NCBI GenBank assembly: GCA_964467775.1
Contig: CAYXUD010000080.1
Location: 1,586-65,585 of the forward strand
DNA length: 64,000 nt
Source of the DNA: an uncultured Bacteroides sp.
GTDB lineage: Bacteria; Bacteroidota; Bacteroidia; Bacteroidales; GCA-2748055
Direction of reading: 5' to 3'
Part shown: positions 3,092-47,381 of the stretch, one piece after another
How the letters are laid out: every line of letters starts with the position of its first letter
How positions within the stretch are numbered: the stretch's first letter is position 1
Position numbers and translations under genes: made by a program
Notes under the pieces: generated by a model
The model's database searches: none
Seen by the model: only the letters and a program-made list of their open reading frames with translations
Told to the model about the DNA's origin: nothing

Positions 3092-5348
3092 GATATGATT
3101 GAATCCCGCTCGCGCAATCCCCGTAGCTTTGCTGCGGGGTAAGCGAGCACAAATAAAATAATTTATGGATCGAAGATTCCTCGGAGCTTGCTCCGAGGAG
3201 CTTCAATACTGCCTCCCGGTATTTCTCAGGTACCAGGTCAAAACCAAGCGACAACAGGTTGGCGGTGGGTGTATTGTTGCTGTAATAGTTCATCGATTCG
3301 ACAAAGTATTCCTTGTTGTAAGCCACCTTCATGGAATCAGCCAGTGCCTCAAACAGTGCTTCATCTTCCTGAAAACCAAGCAGATTGGCAAAGCGCTGCA
3401 TGATCCTGGCATCATGATAATAGAAAGCAGTTCCGATCAATGCACCACTCGTAATCCTGTCCGGATCGCTGCTGTGGATCATCGACATTTCTTCAGGAGG
3501 CATACACCAGTCACCATAGGTGTCGCGAGGCATCAGGAAACCGGTCATATACCTGTTTTGCATATAGTGCATCCATTTTTTCATGGCAGGATAATGTTCA
3601 TGAACGGCATCTATTCCTCCAAACTGGTCATACAGCATCTCGGCAACCATGATCCCGGTTCCATCCCAGGTCACATTGTCATTATATAATCTCCAGTATG
3701 CAGGGCTGACATCAGGAATACTTCCCTCCCCGGTCTGGTCATCGCGCATATCAGCGAGCCACTTGCGGTAGAGGTTATAATTGTTGAACATGTAACTCTC
3801 ACCCCGGCATCCCGTGGCCCTGTCACCCAACCAGCCCATGCGCTCGTCGCGCTGCGGACAGTCGGTTGGCATACTCCGGTAGTTTCCCCTGATACCCCAG
3901 ACGGCATTTTTATAGACCTGGTTGAGGAGATCACTGGCACAGTCGAAAGTGCCGTTTGTCCGTACGTCGTTATTCACGACGCAACCCAGGATTGTGTTCA
4001 GGTCTGGTTTGCCGGGATACCCTCTGACTTCAACATACCTGAAGCCATGATATGTAAATTTTGGAACCCAGGTTTCCGGTCCATCTCCTTTCAAAGTATA
4101 CATATCGGTAACCTTTGCACTCCTGATATTGTCGAGGTAGAGTGTTCCATCCTTTCTTAAAGTTTCCGCAAAGCGCATCACCACCCTGTCTCCCTGTTTA
4201 CCTTCAACCGACAACTTTACCCAGCCCACCATGTTTTGACCCAGGTCATAGATAAAAACACCCGGGCTCACCTCATTCACCGATACCGGCTTGATATAAC
4301 CCGTCACCCTGATGGGTTCGATCAGCGGTGCTGAAAGCTTTCCCGGGGGTGCCATGACCAGCTCAGCCTTCAACCAGTTTATCGGGGTGTATCCGGGTTT
4401 ATCCCATCCGTAGAGATCCTTCCGCGCATCGTATTTCTCTCCGTCGAATTCGCTGTTTTCCCTAATGGGGCCATTGGCGGTTACACTCCAATTTTCATCG
4501 GAAATAATAACTTCATTGCTGCCATCGCTGTATTCGATATTAATCTGCATGATAAGCTTTGGGAATCCGTAATGCTCCATCTTCATAGGAATGTTATTGC
4601 GCATGGCAAAATAACGTCCATTCCCGAGCACAATTCCAATGGCGTTCTGTCCAATCTCAATCATGGAGGTGACATCAAATGAATTGTAAAAAACCCTCTT
4701 ATTGTACTGGGTGGCATCGGGTGCCAGCACCATATCGCCTGTTTTTTCGCCATTCAGGTGCAGTTCGTACAATCCAAGGCCACTGATATGGGCAGTAGCA
4801 GATTTGACCTCTTTTAAAATTTCAAATTCCCTGCGGAAATAGCGGGCCGCCAGTTTGCGGAATTCCCCTTCAATATCATCTCCGGCAAATGATCTGTCCA
4901 GCCCTATCCATCTGCCCTTCCAATCCTCTTCATTCAGCAGTCCCATTGACCAATACGCCGTTTCAGACCATCCAGATTCAACATCATTTTTACTCCATAC
5001 CTTTACCTTCCAGAAACATGCCTGGCCTGATTTCAGCGGGACACCACTATATTTTATGTTGAGGGACTGGCAGGACTCTATTATTTTTGAATCCCAAAGG
5101 GTTCCATTGTCATTTTCGAGATCTTCGGAGGTGGCTGCAACCAAAACCCGGTATGCCGTTTGTTCTTCTCCCCTCTGTTCCGAAACGGATTGCCAGCTTA
5201 ACGAAGGTTGGAGTATATCAATACCAGAAGGGTTCAATCTGTTTTCACACAACAGATTTACGGGTGAAATTCCTCCGTTTGAATGAGGGTTCTTACTGCA
5301 GCTGAGTAAGATAAGCGTGAGCAGGAAAAGGATTTGAATTGGTTTCAT
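3078..5348 (-). CDS. alpha-L-rhamnosidase (GH78), N-terminal fragment; last ~41 codons are element-encoded or out of frame
   Basis: 756-aa ORF with a lipoprotein-like signal (MKPIQILFLLTLILLSCS). QPSLSWQ...AYRVLVA is the GH78 N-terminal domain pattern. It is contiguous in sequence logic with 2186..3091. The tail LKLLGASSEESSIHKLFYLCSLTPQQSYGDCASGIQ is a translation of the repeat. Confidence 0.85.
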   Translation of the reverse strand: MKPIQILFLLTLILLSCSKNPHSNGGISPVNLLCENRLNPSGIDILQPSLSWQSVSEQRGEEQTAYRVLVAATSEDLENDNGTLWDSKIIESCQSLNIKYSGVPLKSGQACFWKVKVWSKNDVESGWSETAYWSMGLLNEEDWKGRWIGLDRSFAGDDIEGEFRKLAARYFRREFEILKEVKSATAHISGLGLYELHLNGEKTGDMVLAPDATQYNKRVFYNSFDVTSMIEIGQNAIGIVLGNGRYFAMRNNIPMKMEHYGFPKLIMQINIEYSDGSNEVIISDENWSVTANGPIRENSEFDGEKYDARKDLYGWDKPGYTPINWLKAELVMAPPGKLSAPLIEPIRVTGYIKPVSVNEVSPGVFIYDLGQNMVGWVKLSVEGKQGDRVVMRFAETLRKDGTLYLDNIRSAKVTDMYTLKGDGPETWVPKFTYHGFRYVEVRGYPGKPDLNTILGCVVNNDVRTNGTFDCASDLLNQVYKNAVWGIRGNYRSMPTDCPQRDERMGWLGDRATGCRGESYMFNNYNLYRKWLADMRDDQTGEGSIPDVSPAYWRLYNDNVTWDGTGIMVAEMLYDQFGGIDAVHEHYPAMKKWMHYMQNRYMTGFLMPRDTYGDWCMPPEEMSMIHSSDPDRITSGALIGTAFYYHDARIMQRFANLLGFQEDEALFEALADSMKVAYNKEYFVESMNYYSNNTPTANLLSLGFDLVPEKYREAVLKLLGASSEESSIHKLFYLCSLTPQQSYGDCASGIQSYRGKN
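3098..3207 (+). mobile_element. 110-bp hairpin-rich repeat element (MITE/PATE-like), copy 1, inside the GH78 gene
   Basis: Sequence: attgaatcccgctcgcgcaatccccgtagctttgctgcggggtaagcgagcacaaataaaataatttatggatcgaagattcctcggagcttgctccgaggagcttcaat. It is 109/110 identical to 32944..33053. Termini are inverted (ATTGAA...TTCAAT). Hairpins lie at 3119..3139 and 3179..3198. Confidence 0.85.
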
Positions 5349-5405
5349 ATGTTTTATTTATGGCAATTGGTAAGTATTCAAATTTAACAGGAAACTACAA
5401 TCATT

Positions 5406-5531
5406 ATGAAATCTTTCAGCCAACCTTCTCGGTCTGTATCTGCATCATTACATAAATATAACGGCAGCATAGATATATCATCCATATTGAATAAAGGAAC
5501 TGAAATAACTGTTAGTATTCCATTTAATTGA
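5406..5531 (+). pseudogene. orphan C-terminal remnant of a sensor histidine kinase (HATPase_c end)
   Basis: 41-codon ORF MKSFSQPSRSVSASLHKYNGSIDISSILNKGTEITVSIPFN. The segment NGSI...S..NKGTEITVSIP matches the G2-box/C-terminal strand pattern of histidine kinases. No upstream kinase body is present. Confidence 0.3.
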
Positions 5532-5567
5532 AAGGTTATAAAGCATTAGCTGAGCGAACGTCCCAAC

Positions 5568-9707: not shown

Positions 9708-9720
9708 TGGAACACTACCC

Positions 9721-10575: not shown

Positions 10576-10585
10576 GTATGCGTTA

Positions 10586-11800: not shown

Positions 11801-11809
11801 AGTACAGTA

Positions 11810-29794: not shown

Positions 29795-29851
29795 AAATAA
29801 AATAAGAAATTAATCGATGATTCCTCGCAGCTTGCTGCGAGGAGAGTCAAT
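29742..29851 (+). mobile_element. repeat element, diverged unit V (first unit of a tandem dimer)
   Basis: Sequence: cttgaattacgcgagcgcagtccccgaagttctacttcggggtaagcgagcacaaataaaataagaaattaatcgatgattcctcgcagcttgctgcgaggagagtcaat. It has the same length as the canonical unit and aligns to it without gaps. Both hairpins are retained through paired substitutions. Confidence 0.8.
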
Positions 29852-29954
29852 CCCGCTCGCGCATTCCCCGTAGCTTTGCTGCGGGGTAAGCGAGCACAAA
29901 TAAAATAATTTATGGATCGAAGATTCCTCGGAGCTTGCTCCGAGGAGCTTCAAT
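29852..29954 (+). mobile_element. repeat element, canonical unit C (second unit of the dimer; shares the junction 7-mer with unit V)
   Basis: 103 nt identical to 32951..33053. It follows GTCAAT of unit V directly, without its own left ATTGAAT. Confidence 0.85.
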
Positions 29955-32250: not shown

Positions 32251-32996
32251 TACAGGCAGGTTACTCCGTATAGCATATAGCCGGTATCGTTCATGGCCGA
32301 TATCAAATCGATGGATCTGATTTCTACATCGGGCCTGGGATTTTCCCATGTATAACGGTATAATTTCAACACAAAACCCAGGTCTTTTACCCTGGGATTT
32401 GAACCCTCCCATGCCAGTTCAGCTCTGGGTGGAAATACTGAATTCTTCGGATGGAACCACCAATCTTCAACCTCGATCCGGCTTCTGATGGTGATGGTTT
32501 TTTTCCGGTTATCTGCATAATTGACCACAATGCGGACAACTTCTGTCCCTGTTTCACTCTCCCAGGCTGATGAATGCAAGAAGCATAATTCATCAGCCAT
32601 GTGATGAACAGGTATGCCGGAAATTTCCTTCGGATAATTGATGTGGGACATTTCGAGGGAAACCTTGCTGGCCAGCTGGATAATGCCACGGGCATCGAAA
32701 TTCACACCGTTAAAATCATTGATTCCAGAAGGAATGGGTATGGTATTGCCTGGTTTGCCATGAATCTCTTCACTCAAAGAAAAATTATAATAAGGCTCCA
32801 GATCAACATATCTGCCATCGTCAGGGAATTGCCGCGGGACAATGGCGCGCAATGGTTTTGTTCTTATTTGCATCATTTCTTTTTTTGATTGGACCGGAGG
32901 CAACTCCTTATCGAAATCGTCGCTGGTATAGGTTATTTTAGTAATTGAATCCCGCTCGCGCATTCCCCGTAGCTTTGCTGCGGGGTAAGCGAGCAC
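32250..32996 (-). CDS. C-terminal accessory domain of the interrupted GH-A hydrolase (unassigned beta-rich domain); first 17 codons are element-encoded
   Basis: MLAYPAAKLRGMRERD is element-derived. The host part is SITKITYTSDDFDKELPP...VNFDARGIIQLAS...LCFLHSSAW...VNYADNRKKTITIRSRIEVEDWWF...WENPRPDVEIRSIDLIS. The frame joins 33049..33957 if 103 nt are removed. Confidence 0.6.
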   Translation of the reverse strand: MLAYPAAKLRGMRERDSITKITYTSDDFDKELPPVQSKKEMMQIRTKPLRAIVPRQFPDDGRYVDLEPYYNFSLSEEIHGKPGNTIPIPSGINDFNGVNFDARGIIQLASKVSLEMSHINYPKEISGIPVHHMADELCFLHSSAWESETGTEVVRIVVNYADNRKKTITIRSRIEVEDWWFHPKNSVFPPRAELAWEGSNPRVKDLGFVLKLYRYTWENPRPDVEIRSIDLISAMNDTGYMLYGVTCL

Positions 32997-33053
32997 AAAT
33001 AAAATAATTTATGGATCGAAGATTCCTCGGAGCTTGCTCCGAGGAGCTTCAAT
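32944..33053 (+). mobile_element. 110-bp repeat element, copy in the GH-A gene
   Basis: 109/110 identical to 3098..3207. Hairpins at 32965..32985 and 33025..33044. Termini ATTGAA...TTCAAT. Confidence 0.85.
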
Positions 33054-33957
33054 CTCCCGTGAAAATAAGTACCTGTGTGGTACGTGGCCCAATGATGTCG
33101 TGGTATACCTCATCGCGCTGCCCCTGAACCACAAAAATTAATCCAGGTCCGCTTTCGCCCGCATCATCCAGATATAAAGTATATTCCCCGGGATCGCCAA
33201 AGCCCCTGTTCATCATCATGACGCTGAGTCGGTCGCCATCCTGTGCGCCATAAACCAGGAAATCATCATTGGAAACTGTCCCCTTCAGGAAGGTGCCTGT
33301 AAAATATTTTGCCACAAACTCCATGTGCCGGTATGATGCCCTGGGGGTCATGTGGGCTCCGTCGATCAGGCTGAAATCGGATTCTTTGCGGTCGCCTCCA
33401 TGTTCAAACATGCTCCAGCAGGCGGCATAGGCAGCTTCGTACTCCATGCACCAGCCCAGTACCGCCCCGAACATTTGTCCGTTCCCCCACGTGTGCACCT
33501 TGGGGCCTCCCTTGGAGTTGTACTCTCCAATTCCCCAGATCAGCGCATCAGCGCCGGTACGATTGTGCAATGCATTCACCTGGTCTGTTTTAGCTTTTGA
33601 TTTCACGATGCGTTCCAGGAAATCGTTGGCTCCTTCAATGGCCGGGTCGCCGTCACCCTGGGGATAACGGTGCCAAGACAGACCGTCGCAATAATAATAA
33701 TCTTTGTCCGGGACTTTGATCGCGATATCGTTTTTCCCTCCAAACAGGTCATCGAAAGGCACATCGAAATAATCGCAGAAATCGGGACCATAAATCTTTA
33801 TGGTGGGATCCACCGCCTTCATGGCGGCAGCAATGGGTTTGAAATAGCCTTCGACAAACTCCCCCATGGTTGAAAGGGGCGGACGGTTGGCCTGCAACCA
33901 GGGTTCGTTACCAATGTTCCAGTATTTAACCGGCGATACACCCTCATGTTTCTCCAC
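33049..33957 (-). CDS. clan GH-A (TIM-barrel) glycoside hydrolase, central fragment (family not assigned)
   Basis: VKYWNIGNEPW (NEP acid/base motif). Paralogous along its length to 34298..35620. It stops at the TGA in the element terminus (gga gat TGA). The apparent GTG start follows a frameshift. Confidence 0.75.
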   Translation of the reverse strand: MEKHEGVSPVKYWNIGNEPWLQANRPPLSTMGEFVEGYFKPIAAAMKAVDPTIKIYGPDFCDYFDVPFDDLFGGKNDIAIKVPDKDYYYCDGLSWHRYPQGDGDPAIEGANDFLERIVKSKAKTDQVNALHNRTGADALIWGIGEYNSKGGPKVHTWGNGQMFGAVLGWCMEYEAAYAACWSMFEHGGDRKESDFSLIDGAHMTPRASYRHMEFVAKYFTGTFLKGTVSNDDFLVYGAQDGDRLSVMMMNRGFGDPGEYTLYLDDAGESGPGLIFVVQGQRDEVYHDIIGPRTTQVLIFTGD

Positions 33958-34301
33958 GTTAAAAACCGGACCAGTTCGGCGACAGCTTCAGCAGGTTGGT
34001 ATTGGGAAACCTGCAGAATGGGTACAGCTCCTACAGCCTGGATTTTTTGAACCCAATCCAACAGTGTTTCCTTCGATGGCAGGTTCTTGTCATACGCATG
34101 GCCTCCAATCCGGATGGTTTTCATTCCGCACTCCATGGTAAGGTTCCATGCCTGCTCGCCCGGATCATTGTACCATACATTGGTGCCAACCAGCAGTGGG
34201 CTGATCTGTTGCGCAATGGAATCAGTGGCAAGGAAAATAAATATCCCGGCTATGAGTTTAGAAGCACAGGTTTTCATGATGGATTGTATTGAAGATTTCA
34301 T
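33819..34301 (-). CDS. N-terminal fragment of the same GH-A hydrolase (signal peptide plus first ~113 codons real, remainder out of frame)
   Basis: MKSSIQSIMKTCASKLIAGIFIFLATDSIAQQISPLLVGTNVW...IRIGGHAYD...ILQVSQYQPAEAVAELV parallels QEISPWLFGQNHW...VRIGGNGYE...ILQVPRKFSAEEVTGLV of the paralog. Frame is lost at the A5/T5 run 33961..33965. The start overlaps the upstream stop (ATGA). Confidence 0.7.
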   Translation of the reverse strand: MKSSIQSIMKTCASKLIAGIFIFLATDSIAQQISPLLVGTNVWYNDPGEQAWNLTMECGMKTIRIGGHAYDKNLPSKETLLDWVQKIQAVGAVPILQVSQYQPAEAVAELVRFLTWRNMRVYRRLNTGTLVTNPGCRPTVRPFQPWGSLSKAISNPLLPP

Positions 34302-35620
34302 TGTATATCAGGTGGCAGGTTCTTCAGATTGTGGATTAATCCATACGTGTATTGCTTCAGAATTTCTCCTGTTTCCGATAATACAAACATCAGGGTGGTC
34401 TGCCCGGGAATGGTACCACTGATCATCTTATCAAGGCCGGCATCGGCATGGATGATCAAGGGTTTGGGGGACATGCCATCTTTGTTCAGTATAAGATCGA
34501 ATTCAAAATCTTTTTCCCTGTCCCGGTTTAATATCATCACGACAATTTCATCATCGCTTGCCGTGGCGATGGACCTGACATAGGAGTTGCTGGTTGCAGA
34601 AGGCAGGAAGTTGCCTTTCATATGTGAAGCCATCATCTGCGTGTGGTAAAAGCTGGATCGCGGATAGAATTCGGAGGGCAGGCCAAGAAATCCAAAATCG
34701 GTACGAACTCTGTCTGTTTCACTGAGGCACCATGGATTCACTGTAAAGGCTCCGTATTCAAGACCAATGCCATACATCTCAGCGATGAATTGTCCGCCGA
34801 GAAACGAAGGATTTCCAATACCCGAGATCTCCCTGTCGGGATTGATGTAGGTCACATTCACTTCGGTAAGTCCCCAGAGCAATTCTGCATCTCCCGTACG
34901 ACCATGTTTCCTGTTTGCCTCCTCCATCATTTCTGTCAGTTGTATGACCTGTCTACGGATGCTGAAAGGGCCCGAGAAAACCACATCATCGCGATCGAAA
35001 TCCCTGCCATTGGGATAGTTATGAAAGGTGAATCCATCAATGATCCAGTTCCCCTTTTCATCCTTGCCCGTGATATCTAGTCTTCCTCCGCACAGCGCCT
35101 CATATGCCTCTTTATATAACGTACAGGCGTCAAACACAAATATTTTGATCGTCGGATCAGCTGCTTTCATGGCAGGGGCAAGTCTGATCAGGTAGGTGTA
35201 CACTTCATCTATTTTTCCCTTGTTGTTGCAGATGGGTTCATTGCCGATGGACCAGAACTGAACAGGTTCCCTTTCAGGGTTATGGTTTAATAAATTCACC
35301 AAGCCGGTCACCTCTTCTGCTGAAAACTTGCGGGGTACCTGCAAAATCGGCTCTGCACCAATTCCGCGGATGGAGTCAATCATTCCAATCAGTGTGTGAT
35401 TGTCAGGAAAGCGATGTTCATACCCGTTTCCCCCGATGCGCACCATCCTGATGCCGCTCTGCCCTACTTTTGGCCAGAGCATGGATAGATATCCAGGGCG
35501 TTCACCCTCATCCCGGGTGTCCATCCAGTGGTTCTGCCCGAAAAGCCACGGACTGATTTCCTGCCCATTCACTCCTGAAGCGAATGCCGCAAGCACTAAA
35601 ATTAATCTTAGGAATTTCAT
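34298..35620 (-). CDS. clan GH-A (TIM-barrel) glycoside hydrolase, intact paralog
   Basis: 440 aa with a signal peptide. FWSIGNEP acid/base motif and GLTEVN candidate nucleophile strand. Confidence 0.7.
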   Translation of the reverse strand: MKFLRLILVLAAFASGVNGQEISPWLFGQNHWMDTRDEGERPGYLSMLWPKVGQSGIRMVRIGGNGYEHRFPDNHTLIGMIDSIRGIGAEPILQVPRKFSAEEVTGLVNLLNHNPEREPVQFWSIGNEPICNNKGKIDEVYTYLIRLAPAMKAADPTIKIFVFDACTLYKEAYEALCGGRLDITGKDEKGNWIIDGFTFHNYPNGRDFDRDDVVFSGPFSIRRQVIQLTEMMEEANRKHGRTGDAELLWGLTEVNVTYINPDREISGIGNPSFLGGQFIAEMYGIGLEYGAFTVNPWCLSETDRVRTDFGFLGLPSEFYPRSSFYHTQMMASHMKGNFLPSATSNSYVRSIATASDDEIVVMILNRDREKDFEFDLILNKDGMSPKPLIIHADAGLDKMISGTIPGQTTLMFVLSETGEILKQYTYGLIHNLKNLPPDIQ

Positions 35621-35622
35621 AG

Positions 35623-37515
35623 TTAGTTTCGTATAATTTTCATGGACTCAACCAGGGAAAACTCCGGAGCAGTGAGCTGCACAAAGTAGATACCGGATCT
35701 CATCACGGGCTTTGAACGGTCAACCATACTGAAATAGAGGGTGTACCTCCCTAAGGTCAGTTCACCTGAAAAAAGTGTATCAATGTACCTGCCGGCCATA
35801 TCGTATATCTTAATATACACCTCCATGGGGGATGGTACATTTACCATTAAAGAAAAATCCTCGGTAAATGGAACTGGGGCTACCTCCCAGCTGATCATTC
35901 CTTTGCCTGGAAGTGGCTGGATTCCCGTAATGGTGGGATCTGACAGCTGATGGACACCCACATCCAGGGATTCAGGGTTTACCGGATTGCCCCAGAAATC
36001 GGTCATTTCACCGTCAAACCAGTAGTTGCCTTTCATCTGGGAGAGGGGCAATCCTGCATGAAGGCAAGTACTGCCAGGGCTGAGAAGGTACCCATCCAGG
36101 GAAGAGATCTCCTCCTCCCCGCTGCCTGGATCAACCAGGCCGGGATCTCCTTCCACGGGATTCTGGTTCACAGATGCAGCTGAGGATGGGTAACCCACCG
36201 GGCAATTGTGACTGAATCCAGCGGTCTGTCCATCAGAGCGGATCACCAGTGCCCCTCCTCCTTTATTGATGACAATATTATTATAGAGCTTTGCCGTTCC
36301 CAGTGCTTCATTCACCAGGACCGCCTCGATACCCTCGCCGATGTAAAAAATATTGTTATGGATGATCCCTGAACCTCGCGGTGAGACCCACCTGGAAAAA
36401 TCAAGTATATGTTTTTCCTTTGCTCCGTCGTTCTGGCTGATATTGTAGCGCACGATCGCGTCCTGACTGGAACCGTAGACCAGCATAAAGCCCCCTTCAT
36501 TGCTGCGGGAATAAATATACTGCACCAGGGTATGGTAAGCCTCCAGGTCGGCATCGAAGGCCTGGCCATCCATGCTTCCGCGGGTATCAAAAACCCGGTT
36601 ATGCCGGATAACCGCTTCATCGGTGCTTTTTACCCATATAATCACGCCATACTCAACCAGTTCTTCGGCGGCATTGTGGTCTTCAACGGCTACATTATAT
36701 TCGATAAGTGGTTTGTGGGCATAACGGATGATCATCCCGTCACCGGCACACCTGCTCACCGTATTGTTCCTGATCACCAGGTTGGTAATGGGCCGTTCTC
36801 CCCTTGTTCCCTTATTGCCGTTGGTGAAAATCCCCACCCTCACAATATCCGTGGTCTCGCAGTTCTCTGTCAGGATATTATCAAACCGTGTATTATTATC
36901 CCCGATGATCCCTATCCCCCCTGTATTCTTGCCGATCATCTCGAAACTGTAACGGCCGAAAATATCGTGCATAAGGAGACTCTCCAGGTGAAAATGGCCG
37001 TGGCTGCCTCCATTTGCTGTGATCAACACACCCAGCCGGCTTGCCTGTCCGGATGCAGGACTGGTGATCTCCAGGTTGGAGAGGCACCAGTGACTGATAT
37101 CTTCCAAAGTGATCACAGCTCCCACGGCGCCATTCCCATCGATCTTTGGCCTCGGTCCCTCACCGTAACTGCTCAGGGTAATGGGGTATTTTTCTGTGCC
37201 CGAACCATTAAGGACCAGCTGTCCTTCCCAGCTTTCACCCGCTCTCAGCAGTACCGAATCCCCCGGGTTAAAGATGATCTCATTCAGCCGATCAAGCGAT
37301 TGCCAGGGGGTCTCTCTGGAATTCACAGGATGACTGTCCCTCCCTCCCATGGCATCGAAGAAGTAAGCAAAGCCTGCAGGTGCACTGATAGAAGTACAGC
37401 AAACCGCCGAATATAAACTTCCAACGAATGATCCCTTCGGGAAACCGGAATGGGCCAGAAGGATGAAAAGAAAGATGGGAGGAAAAACCCACTTTTTGGA
37501 TTTCGGCAATTTCAA
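35623..37515 (-). CDS. right-handed parallel beta-helix protein (pectate-lyase-fold) with T9SS C-terminal sorting domain
   Basis: 630 aa with repeated hydrophobic-N-N-x turns (IRNNTV, YNISQND, IHNNIFY, LYNNIVIN). C-terminal CTD ...VYIKIYDMAGRYIDTLFSGELTLGRYTLYF...GIYFVQL. Confidence 0.7.
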   Translation of the reverse strand: MKLPKSKKWVFPPIFLFILLAHSGFPKGSFVGSLYSAVCCTSISAPAGFAYFFDAMGGRDSHPVNSRETPWQSLDRLNEIIFNPGDSVLLRAGESWEGQLVLNGSGTEKYPITLSSYGEGPRPKIDGNGAVGAVITLEDISHWCLSNLEITSPASGQASRLGVLITANGGSHGHFHLESLLMHDIFGRYSFEMIGKNTGGIGIIGDNNTRFDNILTENCETTDIVRVGIFTNGNKGTRGERPITNLVIRNNTVSRCAGDGMIIRYAHKPLIEYNVAVEDHNAAEELVEYGVIIWVKSTDEAVIRHNRVFDTRGSMDGQAFDADLEAYHTLVQYIYSRSNEGGFMLVYGSSQDAIVRYNISQNDGAKEKHILDFSRWVSPRGSGIIHNNIFYIGEGIEAVLVNEALGTAKLYNNIVINKGGGALVIRSDGQTAGFSHNCPVGYPSSAASVNQNPVEGDPGLVDPGSGEEEISSLDGYLLSPGSTCLHAGLPLSQMKGNYWFDGEMTDFWGNPVNPESLDVGVHQLSDPTITGIQPLPGKGMISWEVAPVPFTEDFSLMVNVPSPMEVYIKIYDMAGRYIDTLFSGELTLGRYTLYFSMVDRSKPVMRSGIYFVQLTAPEFSLVESMKIIRN

Positions 37516-37622: not shown

Positions 37623-39161
37623 CTACTCTCCCAGAAACAGGCTTTTTGTTGAGAATTCAGGGTCGCAGGTGAGATTGACATGCAGTTTCCTGAGGCCTGC
37701 TTCATCTCCCGGTGTGGGAATATGCGTCAGGTGGACCTCACAGTTCTGCAATTCGGAGAGCTTTTCAATGGCAAGCTGCGCGGCAGGATTGGAGAGGGCT
37801 GATATCCCCATCATGATGAGTGTTTCCTCGAGGTCAAGGCTGATCATCTTCCCTGTCAGGATCTCCTTTTTCAGGAAGGTTACCTGTTCTATCATATTGG
37901 CCGGCAGAAGATGCATGGTATCGGGCAGTCCGGCCAGGTGCTTGGCGGCGTTCAGGATCAGGCTTGAAGCTGCATGCATCAGGGGGGAGTTCTTACCGCT
38001 GATGATGGTGCCGTCTCTCAACTCCATGGCCGCCCCGCAGCAGATCCCTTCATTTCCCTTGCCGGTTCTTCTGGCATCCTGTGCCGCCTGCCTGGATGGC
38101 ATAACGACCCTTCTGTCCTCGACCGTTGCATGGACCTTTTCCATGATCATCCTGGCCCGGTCCAGCGCATCCCTTTCGACAAGCCCCATGGCATATTCCA
38201 CCGCACAACGGAAATACCTTCGTATGATCTCCTGGTGAGAGGCCTCTGTTATCACAGCATCATCAACAATGCCGGTGCTTGCCCTGTTGACACCCATATC
38301 GGTGGGGGACTTGTACATGGAATCTTCCCCGGTGATCTTCTCAAGGATTCTTTTCAGCAGGGGGAATGCCTCAATGTCCCTGTTATAATTCACTGTCTTT
38401 TCATTGTAGGCTTCCAGGTGGTGATGGTCGATCTGGACAATGTCCTTCAGATCAACGGTGGCCGCCTCATAGGCGATATTCACCTTGTGTGAGAGAGGCA
38501 GGTCCCAGATGGGGAAGGTTTCAAATTTGGCGTACCCGGCCTTCACGCCCTTCTTGTATTCGTGGTAGAGATTGTTCAGGCAGGTGGCCAGCTTCCCGCT
38601 TCCCGGCCCGGGACCGGTCACTATGACAATCGGTTTTGTGGTTTCGATATAGGGATTTGCACCGTATCCCAGGTCACTGACGATCAGGTCCACGTCGGTG
38701 GGGTAACCCTTCGTGTATCCATGGGTGCAAACCCTGATGCCGTTCCGCTCAAGCCTGTTCTTAAAAGAGGTTGCCTGGGGCTGATTCTGGTACCGGGTGA
38801 TCACCACGGCTGTAATGCCTATCCCCCATTCCTTGAAATCATCAATCGTTTTCAGAGCATCGGAATCATAACTGATGCCAAAATCGGCCCGCATCTTCTT
38901 TCTTTCAATATCACCCGCATGAACACATATGATGATGTCTGTCTTCTCCCCGAGTTCCTGCAAAAGGCGCATTTTCACATTTGGGTCGAAACCGGGCAGG
39001 ACCCTGGATGCGTGGTAATCGAACATGATCTTTCCCCCGAATTCGAGATAAAGCTTCTCATTGAAACGTTCCACGCGTTCCAGGATGGAAGCGGTTTGCG
39101 CTTTGATATAGGCTTCGTTATCGAAACCGGTCTTCGGGGCAGGTGGCGGATGGGAGCCCAT
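37623..39161 (-). CDS. DUF1846 (UPF0371) family protein
   Basis: 512 aa. GFDNEAYIKAQTASILERV...KLYLEFGGKIMFDYHASRVLPGFDPNVKMRLL matches the conserved N-terminus of the UPF0371 family. Confidence 0.75.
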   Translation of the reverse strand: MGSHPPPAPKTGFDNEAYIKAQTASILERVERFNEKLYLEFGGKIMFDYHASRVLPGFDPNVKMRLLQELGEKTDIIICVHAGDIERKKMRADFGISYDSDALKTIDDFKEWGIGITAVVITRYQNQPQATSFKNRLERNGIRVCTHGYTKGYPTDVDLIVSDLGYGANPYIETTKPIVIVTGPGPGSGKLATCLNNLYHEYKKGVKAGYAKFETFPIWDLPLSHKVNIAYEAATVDLKDIVQIDHHHLEAYNEKTVNYNRDIEAFPLLKRILEKITGEDSMYKSPTDMGVNRASTGIVDDAVITEASHQEIIRRYFRCAVEYAMGLVERDALDRARMIMEKVHATVEDRRVVMPSRQAAQDARRTGKGNEGICCGAAMELRDGTIISGKNSPLMHAASSLILNAAKHLAGLPDTMHLLPANMIEQVTFLKKEILTGKMISLDLEETLIMMGISALSNPAAQLAIEKLSELQNCEVHLTHIPTPGDEAGLRKLHVNLTCDPEFSTKSLFLGE

Positions 39162-39278
39162 GGTTCAGGTATGCTTGTTTAATTCGGGTGAATAGGATGG
39201 ATAAGATAGGAAAATATCTCATTCGATAGTGCCTTTGCCACTTCAAGGCAATGACCAACCTGAACGATGATATCTGTT

Positions 39279-41543
39279 TCAATCCAGTACCTCCACCTCG
39301 ACCCGCTCCTTACCGGATGTAATGGAATCAAAGAGTTTGATATCTGATTTCACCAGTTGAACAACATCCAGCAACAGGTTCTTTGTCTCTGAGAGCATCT
39401 CAATGTAGGTCACACTTACCTTCACGCCTTTATGGATCCTCTTGAGGATCTTGATCCGGTGGAGCAGTATGTCATTGGCCAGGCTGATCATTTCATCCCG
39501 CCGGAGAACCAGCTCATCCAGGGTGTCATAATTCTTGTTTTTCAACAGGTTGATGATAAAATTGAAGAACTCGCTGACCCTCTCATTGAAATTCTTCAGC
39601 TTATCCACCTGTTCCTTATCAAACGCGTGGTTGTTATCCAAATGGTTGAATGCCGGTTGTACAATGTGTAACAGGGAGTTGCTCGTCTCTTTCATATAGG
39701 CCACCACCTGTACATAATGGTGCCCGCTCTCCAGGTCGATTTCCCTGAATTTCTTAAGTGTGTCAGGGATCTCTTCCCGGATCTGCTTGATCTCCTTGCT
39801 GAGATGCTTGGACTCCTTCTGGAGGGCCTTCAGTTCTTTATGCTTCTCTTTGAAAAAATTGGTATAGGTAAGGTAGAGAATCCTGGATACCCGGAGGATA
39901 ATGCTTCTCACCTGATCATCACATGATTTGAGAACCTCATAGGAGGCCGTTACAATCCCGCCATCAACCCTCCTCTTTTTCTCATTCCTTTTCCTGTGGA
40001 AGGTATGGGTCCTTAACAGAATATAGATGGAAAGTCCTATGAGCAAAATGATGACGGGCAATTTTCCGAAAAAGATAAGTGCCGCGATGAGGAAAGATGC
40101 CAGAAAGGCGCTGAAGGCAGTGAAGAACCAGCCGCCGATCACCGTTAATACGCCTGTAATCCTGTACACTGCACTGTCTCTTCCCCAGGCACCATCGGCA
40201 AGAGAAGTTCCCATGGCCACCATAAAGGTTACATAGGTTGTGGAGAGGGGAAGTTTAAGAGAAGTGCCAAATGCAATCAGAATACTGGCAACAACAAGGT
40301 TCACGGAAGCACGGACATGGTCGAAAGCAATCTTCTCCTTTTTTGAATCCACCGCCTGTTCTGCATGAAACCTGCTGTTGACAAACCTTGTTATAACAGG
40401 TGGTGTAATCTTAGCAGCGGCATGGATCAGTTCAACTGACCTTCTGACAATAAACCTGGCCAGTAAGGTTGAGGCGAAACGTTCGTCTCCTTCATCCTGC
40501 CGGCTGAGATCTATGGTAGTTGCTGTAACGGTTTGTGCTTTCTTTGAAAATCTGAGTGTAAGCAACATGATCAGCCCGGCGGCTATTAAATAATAGATAG
40601 GAGTATTGACCGGTTTAAGCAGCGCTTCCATCAGGAATCCACCGGCATCATTGCTGCCGGAGGCCGCAAAAGCCTTGAAGGATTCCAGGCCAGCAAGCGG
40701 TACACCGATGAAGTTCACAAGGTCGTTTCCTGCAAATGCCATGGCCAGTGCAAAGGTGCCCACCAGCACGGTTATTTTCAGGATGTTGACCCTGGTAAAA
40801 AGTATCAGCAACTGGAACAGAAGGGTCCAGCCCAAGAAACTGATCAACAGAATCTGTGCCGTATGGGCATTAATAAGGGTCAGCATTTCAGGGGAAACCA
40901 GGGTGGATCCTTTGGCTCCCTTGATCAGGAGGAAATAGAGGATGGCCGTGATGGCAAACCCGCCCCAGACCCCGGACCAGTATTTATATGAAATTCTGAG
41001 ATTGAAAGAGAACGCCAGCCTCACCATCCACTGTATGATCATTCCCGCGTTAAATGCAATGACCACCGACAGGAATATCCCGACAATGATCATCACGGAA
41101 CTCTCTATATTGATATAGGCTTCTACGTTATGAATGGCATGACTGTCCCGGGTGATTTTAAAAACAGACACTGCCACCGCTGCCCCGAGGATCCCAAATA
41201 CCACAGAGATCGTGGTGGAGGTAGGGAGTCCCACGGTGTTGAAGAAATCAAGAAGCAGGATATCTGCCAGCATTACTGCCAGGAAAATCACCATGATCTC
41301 GCTGAAGGCAAATTGCCCCGGATTGAAAATCCCTTTCCTGGCCACCTCCATCATGCCGTTTGAAAAAACGGCACCTATCAGCACACCGAGGGCTGCGATA
41401 GCGAGTATCAGTTTAAACGGTGCAGCTTTGGACCCTATGGCGGAATTGAGGAAGTTTACTGCATCATTGCTGACACCTACAATGAGGAGTGCGACAGCCA
41501 GCAGTAAAAGGAAGCCCACAATCAGCATGTAATATGCTTCCAT
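39279..41543 (-). CDS. inorganic phosphate transporter (PiT/PHO4 family) with C-terminal PhoU-like helical domain
   Basis: 754 aa. Duplicated PiT signature-like segments (GVSNDAVNFLNSAIGS; AGNDLVNFIGVPLAG), about 10-12 TM segments and a long cytoplasmic helical tail. Confidence 0.75.
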   Translation of the reverse strand: MEAYYMLIVGFLLLLAVALLIVGVSNDAVNFLNSAIGSKAAPFKLILAIAALGVLIGAVFSNGMMEVARKGIFNPGQFAFSEIMVIFLAVMLADILLLDFFNTVGLPTSTTISVVFGILGAAVAVSVFKITRDSHAIHNVEAYINIESSVMIIVGIFLSVVIAFNAGMIIQWMVRLAFSFNLRISYKYWSGVWGGFAITAILYFLLIKGAKGSTLVSPEMLTLINAHTAQILLISFLGWTLLFQLLILFTRVNILKITVLVGTFALAMAFAGNDLVNFIGVPLAGLESFKAFAASGSNDAGGFLMEALLKPVNTPIYYLIAAGLIMLLTLRFSKKAQTVTATTIDLSRQDEGDERFASTLLARFIVRRSVELIHAAAKITPPVITRFVNSRFHAEQAVDSKKEKIAFDHVRASVNLVVASILIAFGTSLKLPLSTTYVTFMVAMGTSLADGAWGRDSAVYRITGVLTVIGGWFFTAFSAFLASFLIAALIFFGKLPVIILLIGLSIYILLRTHTFHRKRNEKKRRVDGGIVTASYEVLKSCDDQVRSIILRVSRILYLTYTNFFKEKHKELKALQKESKHLSKEIKQIREEIPDTLKKFREIDLESGHHYVQVVAYMKETSNSLLHIVQPAFNHLDNNHAFDKEQVDKLKNFNERVSEFFNFIINLLKNKNYDTLDELVLRRDEMISLANDILLHRIKILKRIHKGVKVSVTYIEMLSETKNLLLDVVQLVKSDIKLFDSITSGKERVEVEVLD

Positions 41544-41722
41544 GAAGAGTAATTATTATGCCAGAAGTAAAAATAGATATTTAAAATACAATCCTAAATT
41601 ATGAATTTGGCTGCAGAAAATTGTGCACAGAGTCTTTTAAAAATCTTACGCATGCTTTTGCATTATAGAACTTATCCATAACTTGAAATCACTTTGAATG
41701 GAACTACTTTAAAAGAATCATC

Positions 41723-43138
41723 ATGAAAAATGTTCTCGCATGTTCATTGTTTGTATTGATGGCACTGCTGGTACCGGTAAGACAATCCCATGGCCAGGAG
41801 AAGGATCTCAAGGAGGCGAATGTTTTTATTACCGCCGAGTCTGACAACCAGTTGCTCCGGGATGCCGGCTTCAGGGCTTTTGAACCCCTGGAGCAGCCTG
41901 ACGAAAATTATCCGACCATCATCGTGGATGACGATGTGAGCTTCCAGACCATTGAAGGTTTCGGGGGTGCCTTTACCGATGCGGCTGCCATTACGTTCGG
42001 GAAACTTCCCGAAAAGGAGCGGGCAAGATTCCTGAAGGCCTGTTTCGATCCCGTGGAGGGGAACGGGTACACCCTTTGCCGAACCACCATTCACAGCTGC
42101 GACTATTCCGATGAGATGTACACCTATGCAGAAGTTGAGGGAGATAAAACATTGAAGCATTTCACCATTGAACACGATATGCAGTACCGCATCCCGATGA
42201 TCAGGGCAGCCATGGAGGCCTCAGGGGGCACCCTGCGCCTCTTCTCCTCGCCCTGGAGCCCGCCCGGATGGATGAAAACGAACGGGGAGATGAAACACGG
42301 GGGAAAGCTTCTGCCCGAATACCGGCAGACCTGGGCCGATTATTTTGTAAAGTATGTTCAGGAGTATGAAAAGGTGGGGATTCCCATGTGGGGGCTCACC
42401 GTCCAGAATGAGGCATTGGCCGTACAGGTATGGGAATCGTGCATTTTTACCGCGAACGAGGAGAAGGATTTCGTAAGGGACTACCTGGGGCCTGCCCTGC
42501 ATAAGAACGGGATGGCGGATATTAAACTGATGATCTGGGACCATAACCGGGGGATCATGTACCAGCGGGTGGAGGCGGCATACGAAGATCCCGAAGCTTC
42601 AAAATACATCTGGGGCACCGCGTTCCACTGGTATGTAGGGGACCATTTTGATAATGTGCGGATGGTCCACGATGCCTACCCGGATAAAATGTTGTTGTAT
42701 TCTGAGGCAGGGATGCGGGGGAGCTGGGGATCGGCAGCCAACCTGGCAAAGAATATCATCCTGGACCTTAACAACTGGGCCAACGGCTGGGTATTCTGGA
42801 ACCTGATCCTCGACCAGGGGAATGGCCCGAGGCATGCGGGGGGCCTGCATGGATCGAATATTGTCAATGCGGACCTGGCCACCGGCAAGGTGACCTACAA
42901 CCCTCCGCACTACGTGTTCGGGCATTTTTCAAAATTCATTAGACCGGGTGCCAGGAGGATTGCCTGCACATCGAGCAGCGATCAGCTGATCGCCACCGCA
43001 TTCATCAATCCGGATGGAACGATCGCCGCAGTAACCCATAACCTGAGCGAAAATGATGTGTTGTTCCAGCTGTGGATCGAGGGAAAAGTGCTTAAATCCA
43101 CCATCCCGGGGCGTGGCACCATTACAATGGTCTTTTAG
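41723..43138 (+). CDS. GH30 glucosylceramidase-type glycoside hydrolase
   Basis: Signal peptide, IEGFGGAFTDAAA, SPWSPPGWMKTNG, WGLTVQNE (acid/base) and MLLYSEAG are GH30 features. Confidence 0.85.
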   Translation: MKNVLACSLFVLMALLVPVRQSHGQEKDLKEANVFITAESDNQLLRDAGFRAFEPLEQPDENYPTIIVDDDVSFQTIEGFGGAFTDAAAITFGKLPEKERARFLKACFDPVEGNGYTLCRTTIHSCDYSDEMYTYAEVEGDKTLKHFTIEHDMQYRIPMIRAAMEASGGTLRLFSSPWSPPGWMKTNGEMKHGGKLLPEYRQTWADYFVKYVQEYEKVGIPMWGLTVQNEALAVQVWESCIFTANEEKDFVRDYLGPALHKNGMADIKLMIWDHNRGIMYQRVEAAYEDPEASKYIWGTAFHWYVGDHFDNVRMVHDAYPDKMLLYSEAGMRGSWGSAANLAKNIILDLNNWANGWVFWNLILDQGNGPRHAGGLHGSNIVNADLATGKVTYNPPHYVFGHFSKFIRPGARRIACTSSSDQLIATAFINPDGTIAAVTHNLSENDVLFQLWIEGKVLKSTIPGRGTITMVF

Positions 43139-43145
43139 ATAATGG

Positions 43146-44663
43146 TCACTGCCTGGCAGGCTGAAATAGTACGTAATCCCAAAATAACATGCCAAAAACA
43201 ATGTTCCTGAGTGTTATTGTATGTTCGGCCGTGGTTGTAAATTCGGCATCGGCAATTTTCTGCAAACCTCCGCTACCCGTACCATAAGGCCCTGTATAGG
43301 TGTAGTTTGTACTTTCTCCATCGAGGTAGGCTATACAATCGGTGACATCCTGCCACCCCGGCTGGTAAATAAAGACTTCATATTTCCCTTTCATGACTTT
43401 TGGAAAAGTAACGGAAATCGACCACCAGCCCAGCATACTCAGACAATCATAGTTTATATTTTCGGGCTGTATGTCTTTATAATAGTAGAGCAGGTAATCG
43501 CCCTCCCATTTGATATTGGCAAAGGTATTTTCACCATCAAAGAATCTCTTGTAATAATGAAGATAATAATCTCCATGCTTAAGGTCGAAGAAATCGGTTG
43601 TTTCAAAAATAATAGAAGCAGGTTCAGGCAAGATCACCGGCAGGATATCGTTGACTGAATGCAGTGCGCCGTTCTTTGCGGGGGTATTGGATGCCGGAAT
43701 ATTAAAGCCGGTATAAAGGTCGGTATTGCTGTTGAGGTTAATCTTGTAGTCGGTATCGATCGTCAGGGATATGTTGTTGTCCCTGGAGAGGATGGGATAG
43801 ATCCCGGTTTCCAGGTCCGAGAGGTAATAGGTGCCGTTCAGGCAGTGGTATTCCATGTAACGGTAGAAGGGGTTTTCCAGGAAGGTGATGCTGTCCGGGT
43901 CGGCGCCGGTCCATTCGATCAGTTCCTGGACGTTATGGATGCCATAGCGCTCATAGATGGTATCTGCCACTGCAAACACGGTAAACCGGGTACGGGCAAT
44001 GCTCTTCCCGTAGGGGAAGCTGATGAGCTGCAGGGTGTCCTTCAGGCCGGTGAGGCTGAGCCCCTGTGAGAAGATCTGGTAGAAGGGATCGGACGAAACG
44101 ACATTGTAAATGTCCTGTGTAACGGGGTCTATCACCCTGTCTATGACATGGATATAGCCGTTGGCGGCACGGATGTCCCTGTCGATGATTTTGGAGTGTT
44201 TATGGACGATGATATCCGATCCCTCGAATTCGGTGACCAGGAAATCACCGATCGCGTTTGTCTCCCTGAGCGTGCCCAGGCCGATGTCGTTGGCGCCAAT
44301 TTCAGCTCCGACAATATGATAAAGGATCAATTCCTCCAGAAGTGAATCGGTGAAATCCGCCAGTGAGGTTACATTCTTGAAGGTGTAGTATTCGAGCATG
44401 GCCTCGTCGGTGGGGAGAAACAGTGTGTAGGGGCCCCTGGTGTTCAGCAATGCCTCCATTCCCGTGAACTCCATCAGTTTTCCGAACTCGGAGAACTGAT
44501 CCGGATGGCCGGCAATAAAATCCCCGATCACCTGTTGCTGCGAGGCCACCTCCCATATCTGGGGTTCTTCCACGCAGGTATTGAAAACCACGGCAGTCAG
44601 TACCATAAGAACAATCCTGAATCCACTCCTGTGACCCATTGATTTAAAAAAATGATGGTTCAT
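43146..44663 (-). CDS. fasciclin (FAS1) domain-containing lipoprotein
   Basis: YTLFLPTDEAM and NGYIHVIDRVI (FAS1 H1/H2-like boxes), then a second FTVFAVADT...NGALHSVNDIL. Start set at ATG 44663 (MNHHFF...). Confidence 0.7.
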   Translation of the reverse strand: MNHHFFKSMGHRSGFRIVLMVLTAVVFNTCVEEPQIWEVASQQQVIGDFIAGHPDQFSEFGKLMEFTGMEALLNTRGPYTLFLPTDEAMLEYYTFKNVTSLADFTDSLLEELILYHIVGAEIGANDIGLGTLRETNAIGDFLVTEFEGSDIIVHKHSKIIDRDIRAANGYIHVIDRVIDPVTQDIYNVVSSDPFYQIFSQGLSLTGLKDTLQLISFPYGKSIARTRFTVFAVADTIYERYGIHNVQELIEWTGADPDSITFLENPFYRYMEYHCLNGTYYLSDLETGIYPILSRDNNISLTIDTDYKINLNSNTDLYTGFNIPASNTPAKNGALHSVNDILPVILPEPASIIFETTDFFDLKHGDYYLHYYKRFFDGENTFANIKWEGDYLLYYYKDIQPENINYDCLSMLGWWSISVTFPKVMKGKYEVFIYQPGWQDVTDCIAYLDGESTNYTYTGPYGTGSGGLQKIADAEFTTTAEHTITLRNIVFGMLFWDYVLFQPARQ

Positions 44664-44830
44664 TTTGGTGTTTTTCTTCAAGTTATGCAAGATTCCCTCA
44701 ATCACCACTTCAAAGAACAGGAACAAAATACGAAGAATTACTGATCAATGAAATTTTCCCGGATTCATTGCCGGCATTTAACCGGATATTTTAGGTAATT
44801 TTAATCGATACATCCATTCAATCTATACAT

Positions 44831-45568
44831 ATGAAAAGAGACATCATTTTATTGTTTACATGTGCTTTTGCAGCGCTGATGATGCAGCCCATCTCTGGTC
44901 AGGGTGTCAATAAGCTTACCGAAAAAGAGCGGAAAGAGGGCTGGGTCCTTTTATTCAATGGCCGGGATTTCAAGGGATGGAGGCAGTGCAACGGAACCGG
45001 CATGCCGAAAAACTGGATCATTGAGGATGATGCCATGAAGGTTTTTACCGGTGAGGGCAAGGATCCAGGCTCCGGAGCAGGGGGTGACATCCTTTTCGGC
45101 GACAGGAAGTTCAGGGACTTTGAGCTGACCGTTGACTGGAAAGCCAGCAAGATGGCCAATTCGGGTATCTTCTTCAATGTGAGAGAGGTGCCCGGTCAGC
45201 CGATCTATTACGCGGCACCCGAGATCCAGGTGCTTGACAATATTGATGCTGACGACAATAAAGTGGCGAGTCACCTGGCCGGTTCACTTTACGATATGAT
45301 TCCGGCAGACCCGGAAACTGTCCATCCGGCCGGTCAATGGAATACCATTGTGGTTCGTGTGGAGGATGGGAAGGTCTGCCATACCCAGAACGGGGTGAAG
45401 GTGGTGGAGTACGAATTGTGGACTCCCTCCTGGGATGAACTGGTGGCCAACAGCAAATTCAGGAATTTCCCCGGATTTACGGAAGGAATTGCCAAAGAGG
45501 GATATATCGGCCTGCAGGATCACGGATACCCGGTCTGGTTCAGGAATATTAAGATCCGTGAACTGTAG
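44831..45568 (+). CDS. DUF1080 (3-keto-disaccharide hydrolase-like) domain protein
   Basis: Signal peptide, GWVLLFNGRDFKGWR, NSGIFF, EIQVLDN and GYIGLQDHGYPVWFRNIKIREL show the canonical DUF1080 pattern. Confidence 0.85.
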   Translation: MKRDIILLFTCAFAALMMQPISGQGVNKLTEKERKEGWVLLFNGRDFKGWRQCNGTGMPKNWIIEDDAMKVFTGEGKDPGSGAGGDILFGDRKFRDFELTVDWKASKMANSGIFFNVREVPGQPIYYAAPEIQVLDNIDADDNKVASHLAGSLYDMIPADPETVHPAGQWNTIVVRVEDGKVCHTQNGVKVVEYELWTPSWDELVANSKFRNFPGFTEGIAKEGYIGLQDHGYPVWFRNIKIREL

Positions 45569-45609
45569 CTGTTGATTTTTCCTCCATGTTGAAGAAGTCA
45601 ATTGTATAA

Positions 45610-45648: not shown

Positions 45649-45678
45649 CATGGCATTGGCACCATTGGCCCGGAGGGA

Positions 45679-46050: not shown

Positions 46051-46080
46051 TTCGCTTCGGTTTAAAAGGTTAATAATTGG

Positions 46081-46590: not shown

Positions 46591-46804
46591 GAAATAAAGC
46601 TACCATGGAAATGGGAGCTGCCCCACACTTAATCGGTCTTCATTCATGTTTTTTCGGTAAGCGGTGGTTTTTTCGAGTTAAACAGGAACAGGGCATGAAA
46701 GCCAAGCATTAAATTTTATATATATTGTCCACCCGGATGAACACCCTGGCATCTGCGTGGGGGAATCGCATTATAAATATCCGGCACATTAAACCATGCA
46801 TATC

Positions 46805-47257
46805 ATGAAAAAGAGAATCTTTATCCCGTTCCTGCTTCTGTTGTTTGGTGCTTTAAACGCTCAGACAACCCATGAAGAGATCGATTATATCCAGGCTATG
46901 TTTGGCATGGAGAAACGTGCTGCGGTAAAAGAATTCATTGTGCTTAAGGAGAATGAAGCCAAAGCATTCTGGAAGTATTATGATGAATATGAGATCCAGC
47001 GAAAAATCTATGGAAAAGAGAGGATTATACTGCTGGACAAATTCGCCGAGCAATATGATTCCATGACCGATGAGGAAAGCATCTCATGGATGGAATCAGT
47101 GATGACCCTGAGAAACAAAAATGAAAAACTTATTGAAAAGTATTATAAAAAGATACTGAAAGAGTGCTCGCCCATCATTGCCATGCAGTTTTACCAGATT
47201 GAGAGTTATATCCTCGCCGGGATCCGTTTCCAGATCCTTGAAAATGTCCCGTTTTAG
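46805..47257 (+). CDS. secreted hypothetical protein
   Basis: MKKRIFIPFLLLLFGALNAQ signal peptide. Helical, Lys/Glu-rich, with no recognisable motif. Confidence 0.5.
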   Translation: MKKRIFIPFLLLLFGALNAQTTHEEIDYIQAMFGMEKRAAVKEFIVLKENEAKAFWKYYDEYEIQRKIYGKERIILLDKFAEQYDSMTDEESISWMESVMTLRNKNEKLIEKYYKKILKECSPIIAMQFYQIESYILAGIRFQILENVPF

Positions 47258-47360
47258 AACGGTTTTAATGGATCATACATGGTTGTGGCAAATCCGGATG
47301 CGGGGGAGTGGAAATTTCGGGTCACTTTACCATAATCTTTGTTGAGCTGGATGTTCCGTC

Positions 47361-47381
47361 AGTGAATCCCGCTCGCGCATT
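47361..47381 (+). repeat. solo left-end fragment of the repeat element (20/21 match)
   Basis: agtgaatcccgctcgcgcatt versus canonical attgaatcccgctcgcgcatt. Same orientation as the other copies, and intergenic. Confidence 0.6.

Follow-up and report, generated by a model that had tools for sequence, protein, structure and literature searches.

Probable non-autonomous IS200/IS605-type transposons: short hairpin-bearing insertions at a retained TGAAT target in a Bacteroidota genome

A 64 000-nucleotide stretch of DNA from an uncultured Bacteroides sp. (GenBank assembly GCA_964467775.1, contig CAYXUD010000080.1; the whole stretch is referred to below as the window) carries four full copies of a 103-nt unit, all on the + strand. 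These repeats are most probably non-autonomous copies of a single-strand transposon of the IS200/IS605 type, that is, palindrome-associated transposable elements (PATEs). An initial annotation had proposed this reading from the repeats of the window, and it is now supported by a fixed 5′ target, no target duplication, no terminal inverted repeats, two covarying hairpins, a right end (TCAAT) that resembles the target (TGAAT) and the fit of guide bases to both ends.

Copies, target site and inserted length

Each unit lies directly 3′ of a host TGAAT and has TCAAT as its own terminus; the left terminus CCCGCTCGCG starts right after TGAAT, and GCTTCAAT is element sequence 3′ of the right hairpin. 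Copy 1 (3105–3207, + strand) lies within a GH78 α-L-rhamnosidase gene and follows the host target at 3100–3104, which reads ATTCA in the sense of the gene and falls in Val-Phe-Asn codons, of which Val-Phe is kept in homologues. Its left guide CAAT (3115–3118) precedes the left hairpin (3119–3139), and its right guide GATT (3175–3178) precedes the right hairpin (3179–3198) and the right-end motif TCAAT (3203–3207). One host TGAAT (29744–29748, + strand) is common to both units of a tandem dimer (29749–29954). The first of these is a variant unit (29749–29851) with compensatory hairpin changes that ends in AGTCAAT, and the second (29852–29954) is of the main type. Copy 3 (32951–33053, + strand; 103 nt) follows the TGAAT at 32946–32950, and the same insertion is also present in a metagenome contig (L019). 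Over 103 nt the second dimer unit and copy 3 are identical (103/103), copy 1 differs by 1 nt and the first dimer unit has diverged (83/103 identical).

The repeat finder returned four 110-nt copies, at 3098, 29742, 29845 and 32944, and a 24-nt left-end family that added 47358–47381. The 26-nt core GGGGTAAGCGAGCACAAATAAAATAA occurred four times on the + strand and not once in 100 shuffles, so that the repeats stand where the initial annotation had placed them. The fragment assigned there to 47361 is a genuine left-end remnant on the + strand in an intergenic region: TGAAT and a 20-nt remnant (CCCGCTCGCGCATTGGCTTC, 47368–47387) of a short variant, with neither hairpins nor right end, form a 25-nt sequence (47363–47387, TGAATCCCGCTCGCGCATTGGCTTC) that is common to the short variant in loci L018 and L029. 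The uniform orientation of the copies also stands for the window, but it is statistically weak, as it reflects only three or four independent events and the dimer is necessarily co-oriented.

The inserted length was obtained from the interrupted genes. Deletion of 3105–3207, 29749–29954 (206 nt) or 32951–33053 rejoined minus-strand open reading frames (ORFs) into uninterrupted frames, in agreement with the earlier count of 103 nt per unit. The GH78 gene (2186–5348, − strand) encodes 1019 amino acids once 103 nt are removed. A putative GH3 β-glucosidase-type gene (29525–32412, − strand), which carries the dimer near its 3′ end, encodes ∼880 amino acids once 206 nt are removed and ends at the natural stop codon of the restored frame (29525–29527); the family was called from sequence motifs only, without Pfam confirmation. 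A gene of unknown family (32250–33957, − strand), interrupted by copy 3, gives a 534-amino-acid frame once 103 nt are removed. For the latter two genes the restored frames rest on ORF continuity only, and Pfam returned no domain across either rebuilt junction, which in the putative GH3 gene is C-terminal. The rebuilt GH78 junction (uninterrupted site sequence GCAGTATTCAATCAT) aligned without gaps with 14 homologues, at 51–68% identity to the 143-amino-acid junction segment, and the homologues keep Val-Phe exactly at the rebuilt GTA TTC.

Because the left-flank TTGAAT supplies the conserved Phe codon of the GH78 gene, the left 7-mer is host DNA and the right CTTCAAT belongs to the element. This bears out the earlier suggestion that one terminal 7-mer might be host sequence, and it revises the proposed split of the repeat into 7 + 96 + 7: the right 7-mer (CTTCAAT or AGTCAAT) is indeed part of the element, but the left one is host DNA in which only the last five bases are constant. 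The opposite assignment, with ATTGAAG kept as host sequence, was rejected, as it creates an in-frame TGA in the other two genes and replaces the conserved GH78 Phe. Removal of the 103 nt (not a multiple of three) as an intron or otherwise at the RNA level was likewise rejected in view of the DNA-level logic of target and ends and of the many intergenic copies. The three large enzyme genes are recent insertional knock-outs and are neither sequencing frameshifts nor old pseudogenes.

Insertions elsewhere were collected by scanning genomes and metagenome contigs with the core 23-mer, which gave two genome loci and 25 metagenome loci; later look-ups added more. Both genome hits are Bacteroidota metagenome-assembled genomes (MAGs), and the metagenomes that carry the element include those of contigs Ga0307420, Ga0315537 and Ga0315550. 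The junction set comprises the window, the two MAGs and many metagenome contigs and represents ∼30 independent insertions. Matching with a regular expression gave 32 distinct left junctions, one of which (L004 +5707) is spurious. T is present at −5 and −1 in all 32, A at −3 and −2 in 31 (the exception being the spurious match) and, at −4, G in 27, C in three and A in two. The off-type junctions include two tandem TCAAT and two TAAAT, one of the latter being a point mutation of an orthologous TGAAT site. At −6, T occurs in just 24 of the 32, and positions farther out are random; the conserved flank is a 5-mer, TGAAT, and not the 7-mer originally described. No position of the 30 right flanks departs from random composition, and in no case does the right flank repeat the left one. 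A survey of copies and flanks of the kind called for in the initial annotation, inside and outside the window, has given (T)TGAAT on the left, random sequence on the right and no duplication. Judged from these junctions, the target is 5 nt long, lies on the 5′ side only and is retained. The identical 103-nt sequence is found at at least 12 different sites, which argues for recent activity.

The two units of the dimer are different variants, so the dimer is not a duplication. Since the left guide needs TG and a TGAAT persists to the left of a resident element, the main-type unit would have been first, and the variant unit (29749–29851) probably came second and entered at the TGAAT that had been retained. 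Re-use of this site explains the dimer better than the insertion of a unit after the right end of another, which had been suggested previously. A similar tandem is present in L029.

Length variants also occur. In a 66-nt variant the left end continues GGCTTC..., and this variant is the parent of the remnant at 47368–47387 in the window; a 119-nt variant has a 16-nt insert (GACTTCGTCTAAAGGT) before the right hairpin. The loci with length variants are L029 (reverse strand, ∼4354–4432), L001 (5726–5844 and 6112–6235) and L018 (1564–1682), and degenerate copies that have lost the right hairpin are found among them.

The window is bacterial and gene-dense, and its sorting domains of the type IX secretion system (T9SS) and many glycoside hydrolases point to Bacteroidota; no tRNA was found in it. 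It is rich in carbohydrate-active enzymes (1–5348, 29525–37515, 41723–45568 and 57095–58123), namely GH38, GH78 and putative GH3 enzymes, a β-helix protein, a weak GH44-like hit, a GH30 enzyme and two 3-keto-disaccharide hydrolases. Each of the three full insertions is in a gene of this carbohydrate-active kind, which at a coding density of ∼88% may be simple chance.

Hairpins, guide bases and proposed mechanism

Ten distinct sequence variants were aligned for the analysis of the hairpins. The left hairpin, CCCCGTAGC-TTT-GCTGCGGGG, is paired in 93% of the cells of the alignment and the right hairpin, CCTCGGAGC-TT-GCTCCGAGG, in 99%. For both together the value is 94%, and five base pairs are changed on both sides in a compensatory manner, which bears out the two subterminal hairpins of the initial annotation. 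None of 500 shuffles attained the observed values, and slid controls were paired in only 33–48%. The single-stranded DNA fold of the unit has z = −5.1. The two hairpins are in direct, not inverted, orientation.

An additional outer stem around the left hairpin (GCTCGC/GCGAGC) was rejected, as it shows no covariation and is broken in three of the ten variants. A known RNA family was rejected as well. Rfam at the gathering threshold gave no family in the window, and under permissive settings its sole match was Chloroflexus-1, whose 25 bits fall short of the cut-off of 181; this sub-threshold match (29774–29949, − strand) covers the dimer and most likely reflects no more than the layout of repeated hairpins.

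In IS608 the cleavage sites are read by the four nucleotides 5′ of the foot of each hairpin: the left guide AAAG serves the cleavage site TTAC and the right guide GAAT serves TCAA, with A+16 paired to T−3 and A+17 to T−4, and the cleavage sites lie 19 nt (left) and 10 nt (right) from the hairpins (PMC3201880, PMC5934647). Written as guide base 1 with cleavage-site base −3, 2 with −4 and 4 with −1, the rule accounts for both ends of IS608. In the present element the corresponding tetranucleotides are CA(T/A/G)T on the left, facing TGAA(T), and GATT on the right, facing TCAA(T). Guide positions 2 and 4 form A:T and T:A pairs at both ends, and position 1 forms C:G on the left and G:C on the right, so that the sole base by which target and right end differ is matched by a single compensating difference between the guides (a swap of C:G for G:C). 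By analogy with IS608, the putative guides at both ends fit its pairing rule. Cleavage site and hairpin foot are 14 nt apart at the left end and 8 nt apart at the right end.

On this basis a transposition cycle can be proposed. Both subterminal hairpins of the + (top) strand would be bound by a Y1 (HUH) transposase encoded elsewhere. The tetranucleotides CA(T/A/G)T (read as CATT) and GATT, which precede the left and the right hairpin on their 5′ sides, would serve as guides: the first would pair with the host TGAA(T) and the second with the right end TCAA(T) of the element, and the points of cleavage would thereby be set. The top strand would then be excised as a circle, with a predicted junction in which GAGCTTCAAT is joined directly to CCCGCTCGCG, and the donor site would be resealed exactly. 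The circle would re-insert 3′ of another TGAAT in single-stranded DNA and produce no duplication. Survival of the target at the left flank would leave the same site open to another element and so give co-oriented tandem dimers such as that at 29749–29954.

Several points weigh against this assignment. Neither a Y1 transposase nor TnpB was found in the window or in the 48 related loci (L001–L048, a few hundred kilobases). The search for Y1 combined a motif with a local phmmer run over six-frame ORFs of at least 60 amino acids in the window and over the related loci; the query was an IS200 TnpA that Pfam recognizes as Y1_Tnp (131 bits). Of the 46 ORFs in the non-overlapping set of the window, 42 were also scanned with Pfam and gave no transposase of any kind, in agreement with the earlier observation that the window has no transposase gene. 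No autonomous element with the same ends was recovered, the core 23-mer scans of genome and metagenome contigs having given short units only. A parent element was not found in scans of viral contigs or by plasmid BLAST, and following the copies of an IS110-family element that target the hairpins (see below) toward an autonomous IS200/IS605 element led to more PATE copies and no tnpA. The third guide base is T, A or G, unlike the A of IS608, and the fit of the guides is perfect only with cleavage after TGAA and an obligatory T at +1; from sequence, cleavage after TGAA and cleavage after TGAAT are indistinguishable. A preference for a particular base at +1 has been described for IS608 and ISDra2. 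The guide rule itself rests on analogy with one crystallized transposase.

The orientation of the copies relative to neighbouring genes is also mixed: by a rough count by hand over the related loci, ∼14 are antisense and ∼7 sense, antisense being if anything the more frequent. This is not what would naively be expected of insertion into the lagging-strand template, as replication-coupled transposition would produce, with co-directional genes. The cumulative GC skew of the window has its minimum at ∼40 kb (38000–42000), where the orientation of the genes also changes from minus-strand to mixed. A replication origin at this minimum was rejected: the flanking genes encode a PHO4-family transporter and the GH30 enzyme, and there is no dnaA.

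Alternative explanations

The closest competitor, which we consider unlikely, invokes the same enzyme superfamily. Repetitive extragenic palindrome (REP)-like sequences would be spread by a single-copy domesticated Y1 enzyme, TnpA-REP or REP-associated tyrosine transposase (RAYT), or by another host HUH nuclease, with the same logic of a hairpin and a 5′ tetranucleotide. A solo palindrome described below for L028 agrees with this, as does the result that no IS-borne tnpA was found in the window or the 48 loci; the insertion of IS110-family elements into the hairpins recalls the targeting of REPs by IS621. REPs are extragenic palindromes that typically occur as inverted doublets, whereas all three full insertions in the window are intragenic and disrupt genes, and the two hairpins of each unit are direct. 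In each unit, moreover, the left end is distinct from the right, the target is fixed and the length is defined (103 nt). The palindrome in L028, 39 nt long and perfect (ATTGACTCTCCTCGCAGC-TCT-GCTGCGAGGAGAGTCAAT), is obtained after removal of an IS110 copy that separates ∼330–370 from 1455–1470; it lies outside any 103-nt unit and is a REP-like singleton derived from the right-end hairpin of a variant.

A miniature inverted-repeat transposable element (MITE) moved by a DDE transposase had been named as the alternative in the initial annotation. It would require a constant 3-bp target duplication, AAT, with termini CCCGCTCG...GAGCTTC. The constant AAT at both junctions of every copy is formally compatible with such a duplication, and in copies 1 and 3 ATTGAA/TTCAAT might be taken for an inverted repeat of 6 bp. 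The supposed repeat is partly host DNA, and its outer bases vary in other copies (ACTGAAT, GATGAAT, AGTGAAT). The termini are not inverted repeats: comparison of the first 15 nt with the reverse complement of the last 15 gave two matches of 15 for the main type and three for the variant, and two or three of 15 is also all that is left when AAT is taken as the duplication. Only at the left junction is AAT preceded by a conserved TG, and the hairpin covariation and guide complementarity are left unexplained. With such termini and with random right flanks, both defining features of a MITE fail and this explanation is very improbable. Scarcely more credible is a rolling-circle derivative of the IS91/ISCR/Helitron type (Y2 HUH), which would insert in one orientation beside a short fixed sequence and would account for target-specific, orientation-specific and duplication-free insertions and for a subterminal 3′ hairpin. 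The targets of IS91-type elements, GTTC/CTTG, differ from TGAAT. There is no sign of one-ended copies of variable length, and a symmetric pair of similar hairpins, each placed after a guide that matches its own cleavage site, is the architecture of IS608.

The 103-nt unit could finally be a deletion derivative of an IS110-family element, as in several contigs (L012, L005 and L006) the first ∼19 nt of the unit are separated from its last ∼84 nt by an IS110-family transposase gene. The IS splits an otherwise perfect stem, in some copies that of the left hairpin and in others that of the right, and in both orientations; guide-like loops of the IS match the hairpin as a target, and the IS110 copies are secondary insertions. 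The deletion derivative would also require conserved flanks on both sides, and only the 5′ side is conserved. This explanation is effectively refuted.

Related systems and an IS110-family element in the hairpins

In the definition of Dyall-Smith et al. (2011; PMC3119063), PATEs have no terminal inverted repeats, carry palindromes near both ends, make no target duplication and are not long enough for a transposase gene. The present element has all four properties, with a 103-nt unit and hairpins near both ends. Like the PATEs of Haloquadratum walsbyi (PMC3119063) and the PATE-like elements of Geobacillus stearothermophilus (Meers et al., 2023; PMC10055086), it has a targeting sequence of 4–5 nt on the 5′ side, a longer distance from end to palindrome at the 5′ than at the 3′ end, homogeneous copies of high identity and palindromes that are themselves attacked by other mobile elements. 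It differs from the PATEs described so far in its Bacteroidota host, its unrelated sequence, its 103-nt unit (with 66- and 119-nt variants) and its target TGAAT; its palindromes are attacked by an IS110-family IS and not by an SMR-A repeat, and no cognate IS605-type parent was identified. The PATE-like elements of Geobacillus are described as mobilized in trans (PMC10055086).

With IS608 of Helicobacter pylori, on which the structural picture of IS200/IS605 transposition is modelled, the element shares insertion 3′ of a short retained target, similarity between right end (TCAA) and target, 4-nt guides that precede both hairpin feet and pair in the same pattern, a left spacing longer than the right and perhaps a preferred base at +1. 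The target (TGAA(T) against TTAC), the third guide base and the spacings (14 and 8 nt against 19 and 10) are different, and the element has neither tnpA nor tnpB. ISDra2 of Deinococcus radiodurans likewise has a pentanucleotide target ending in AT (TTGAT) and strong selectivity at and around the cleavage site, but the target sequence differs and ISDra2 is autonomous with tnpA and tnpB; in sequence the element is unrelated to either. With REPs, their bacterial interspersed mosaic elements (BIMEs) and RAYTs it has in common short palindromes with a conserved 5′ tetranucleotide, REPs being processed by Y1 HUH enzymes, and the use of palindromes as landing sites for IS110-family elements. REPs are often arranged as inverted pairs and have no defined ends or fixed insertion target, in contrast to the discrete, gene-breaking insertions described here.

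The IS found in the hairpins is an ISCaa7-like IS110-family element with a 339-amino-acid DEDD transposase (L012, 2522–3834). It is also present in L005, L006, L028, L029, L030, L031 and L039–L041. Its insertion point is GCTRC^CGRGG in the stem of a hairpin, left or right, and at least seven distinct contexts were seen. In the upstream noncoding end of the IS, a pair of short segments matches each occupied target. In L029/L030 the segments AGAGCTGC and CCCCG correspond to the target AGAGCTGC^CGGGG, in L028 CTCTGCTGC and CCTCG to CTCTGCTGC^CGAGG, in L031 CTTGCTGC and CCTCG to CTTGCTGC^CGAGG and in L039 AGAGCTGC and CCTCG to AGAGCTGC^CGAGG. The guide-like loops of the IS thus co-vary with the hairpin variant that was entered, and relatives at 81–83% identity (L033–L037) are in unrelated targets. 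Matching guide-like segments of this kind are to be expected of IS110 recombinases guided by a bridge RNA; REPs are targeted similarly by IS621. From sequence comparison, the segments look like natural retargeting of a bridge-RNA-type guide. The occupation of the hairpins has a parallel in Haloquadratum, where other repeats target the palindromes of PATEs (PMC3119063).

L005 (2130–2142) and L012 (2503–2521) have the IS110 copy and one flank in common. On the other side, L005 carries a right-end hairpin arm (CGAGGAGTTTCAAT) where L012 carries a left-end arm, which suggests either recombination between IS copies or a chimeric metagenome assembly.

Taken as PATEs, the repeats constitute a well-bounded Bacteroidota family with target, ends, hairpins and guide bases defined from ∼30 independent insertions, which helps annotation, and the ends and guides provide a concrete search key for the missing Y1 transposase. 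By analogy, the fit of guide and target would extend the recognition rule of IS608 to an unrelated natural element, and the IS110 case would be a natural illustration of guide reprogramming. The current understanding of PATE and IS110 systems is left unchanged by these findings. A doubtful further possibility is that the family is kept by a single-copy domesticated Y1/RAYT-like enzyme and not by an IS, with an IS110 element of the bridge-RNA type using the hairpins as a landing pad. If this were true, three layers of mobile DNA would be nested in one another, and the three interrupted glycoside-hydrolase genes would act as reversible on/off switches within the population, through excision that leaves no scar. 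Precise excision might in principle restore the three genes knocked out in the window.

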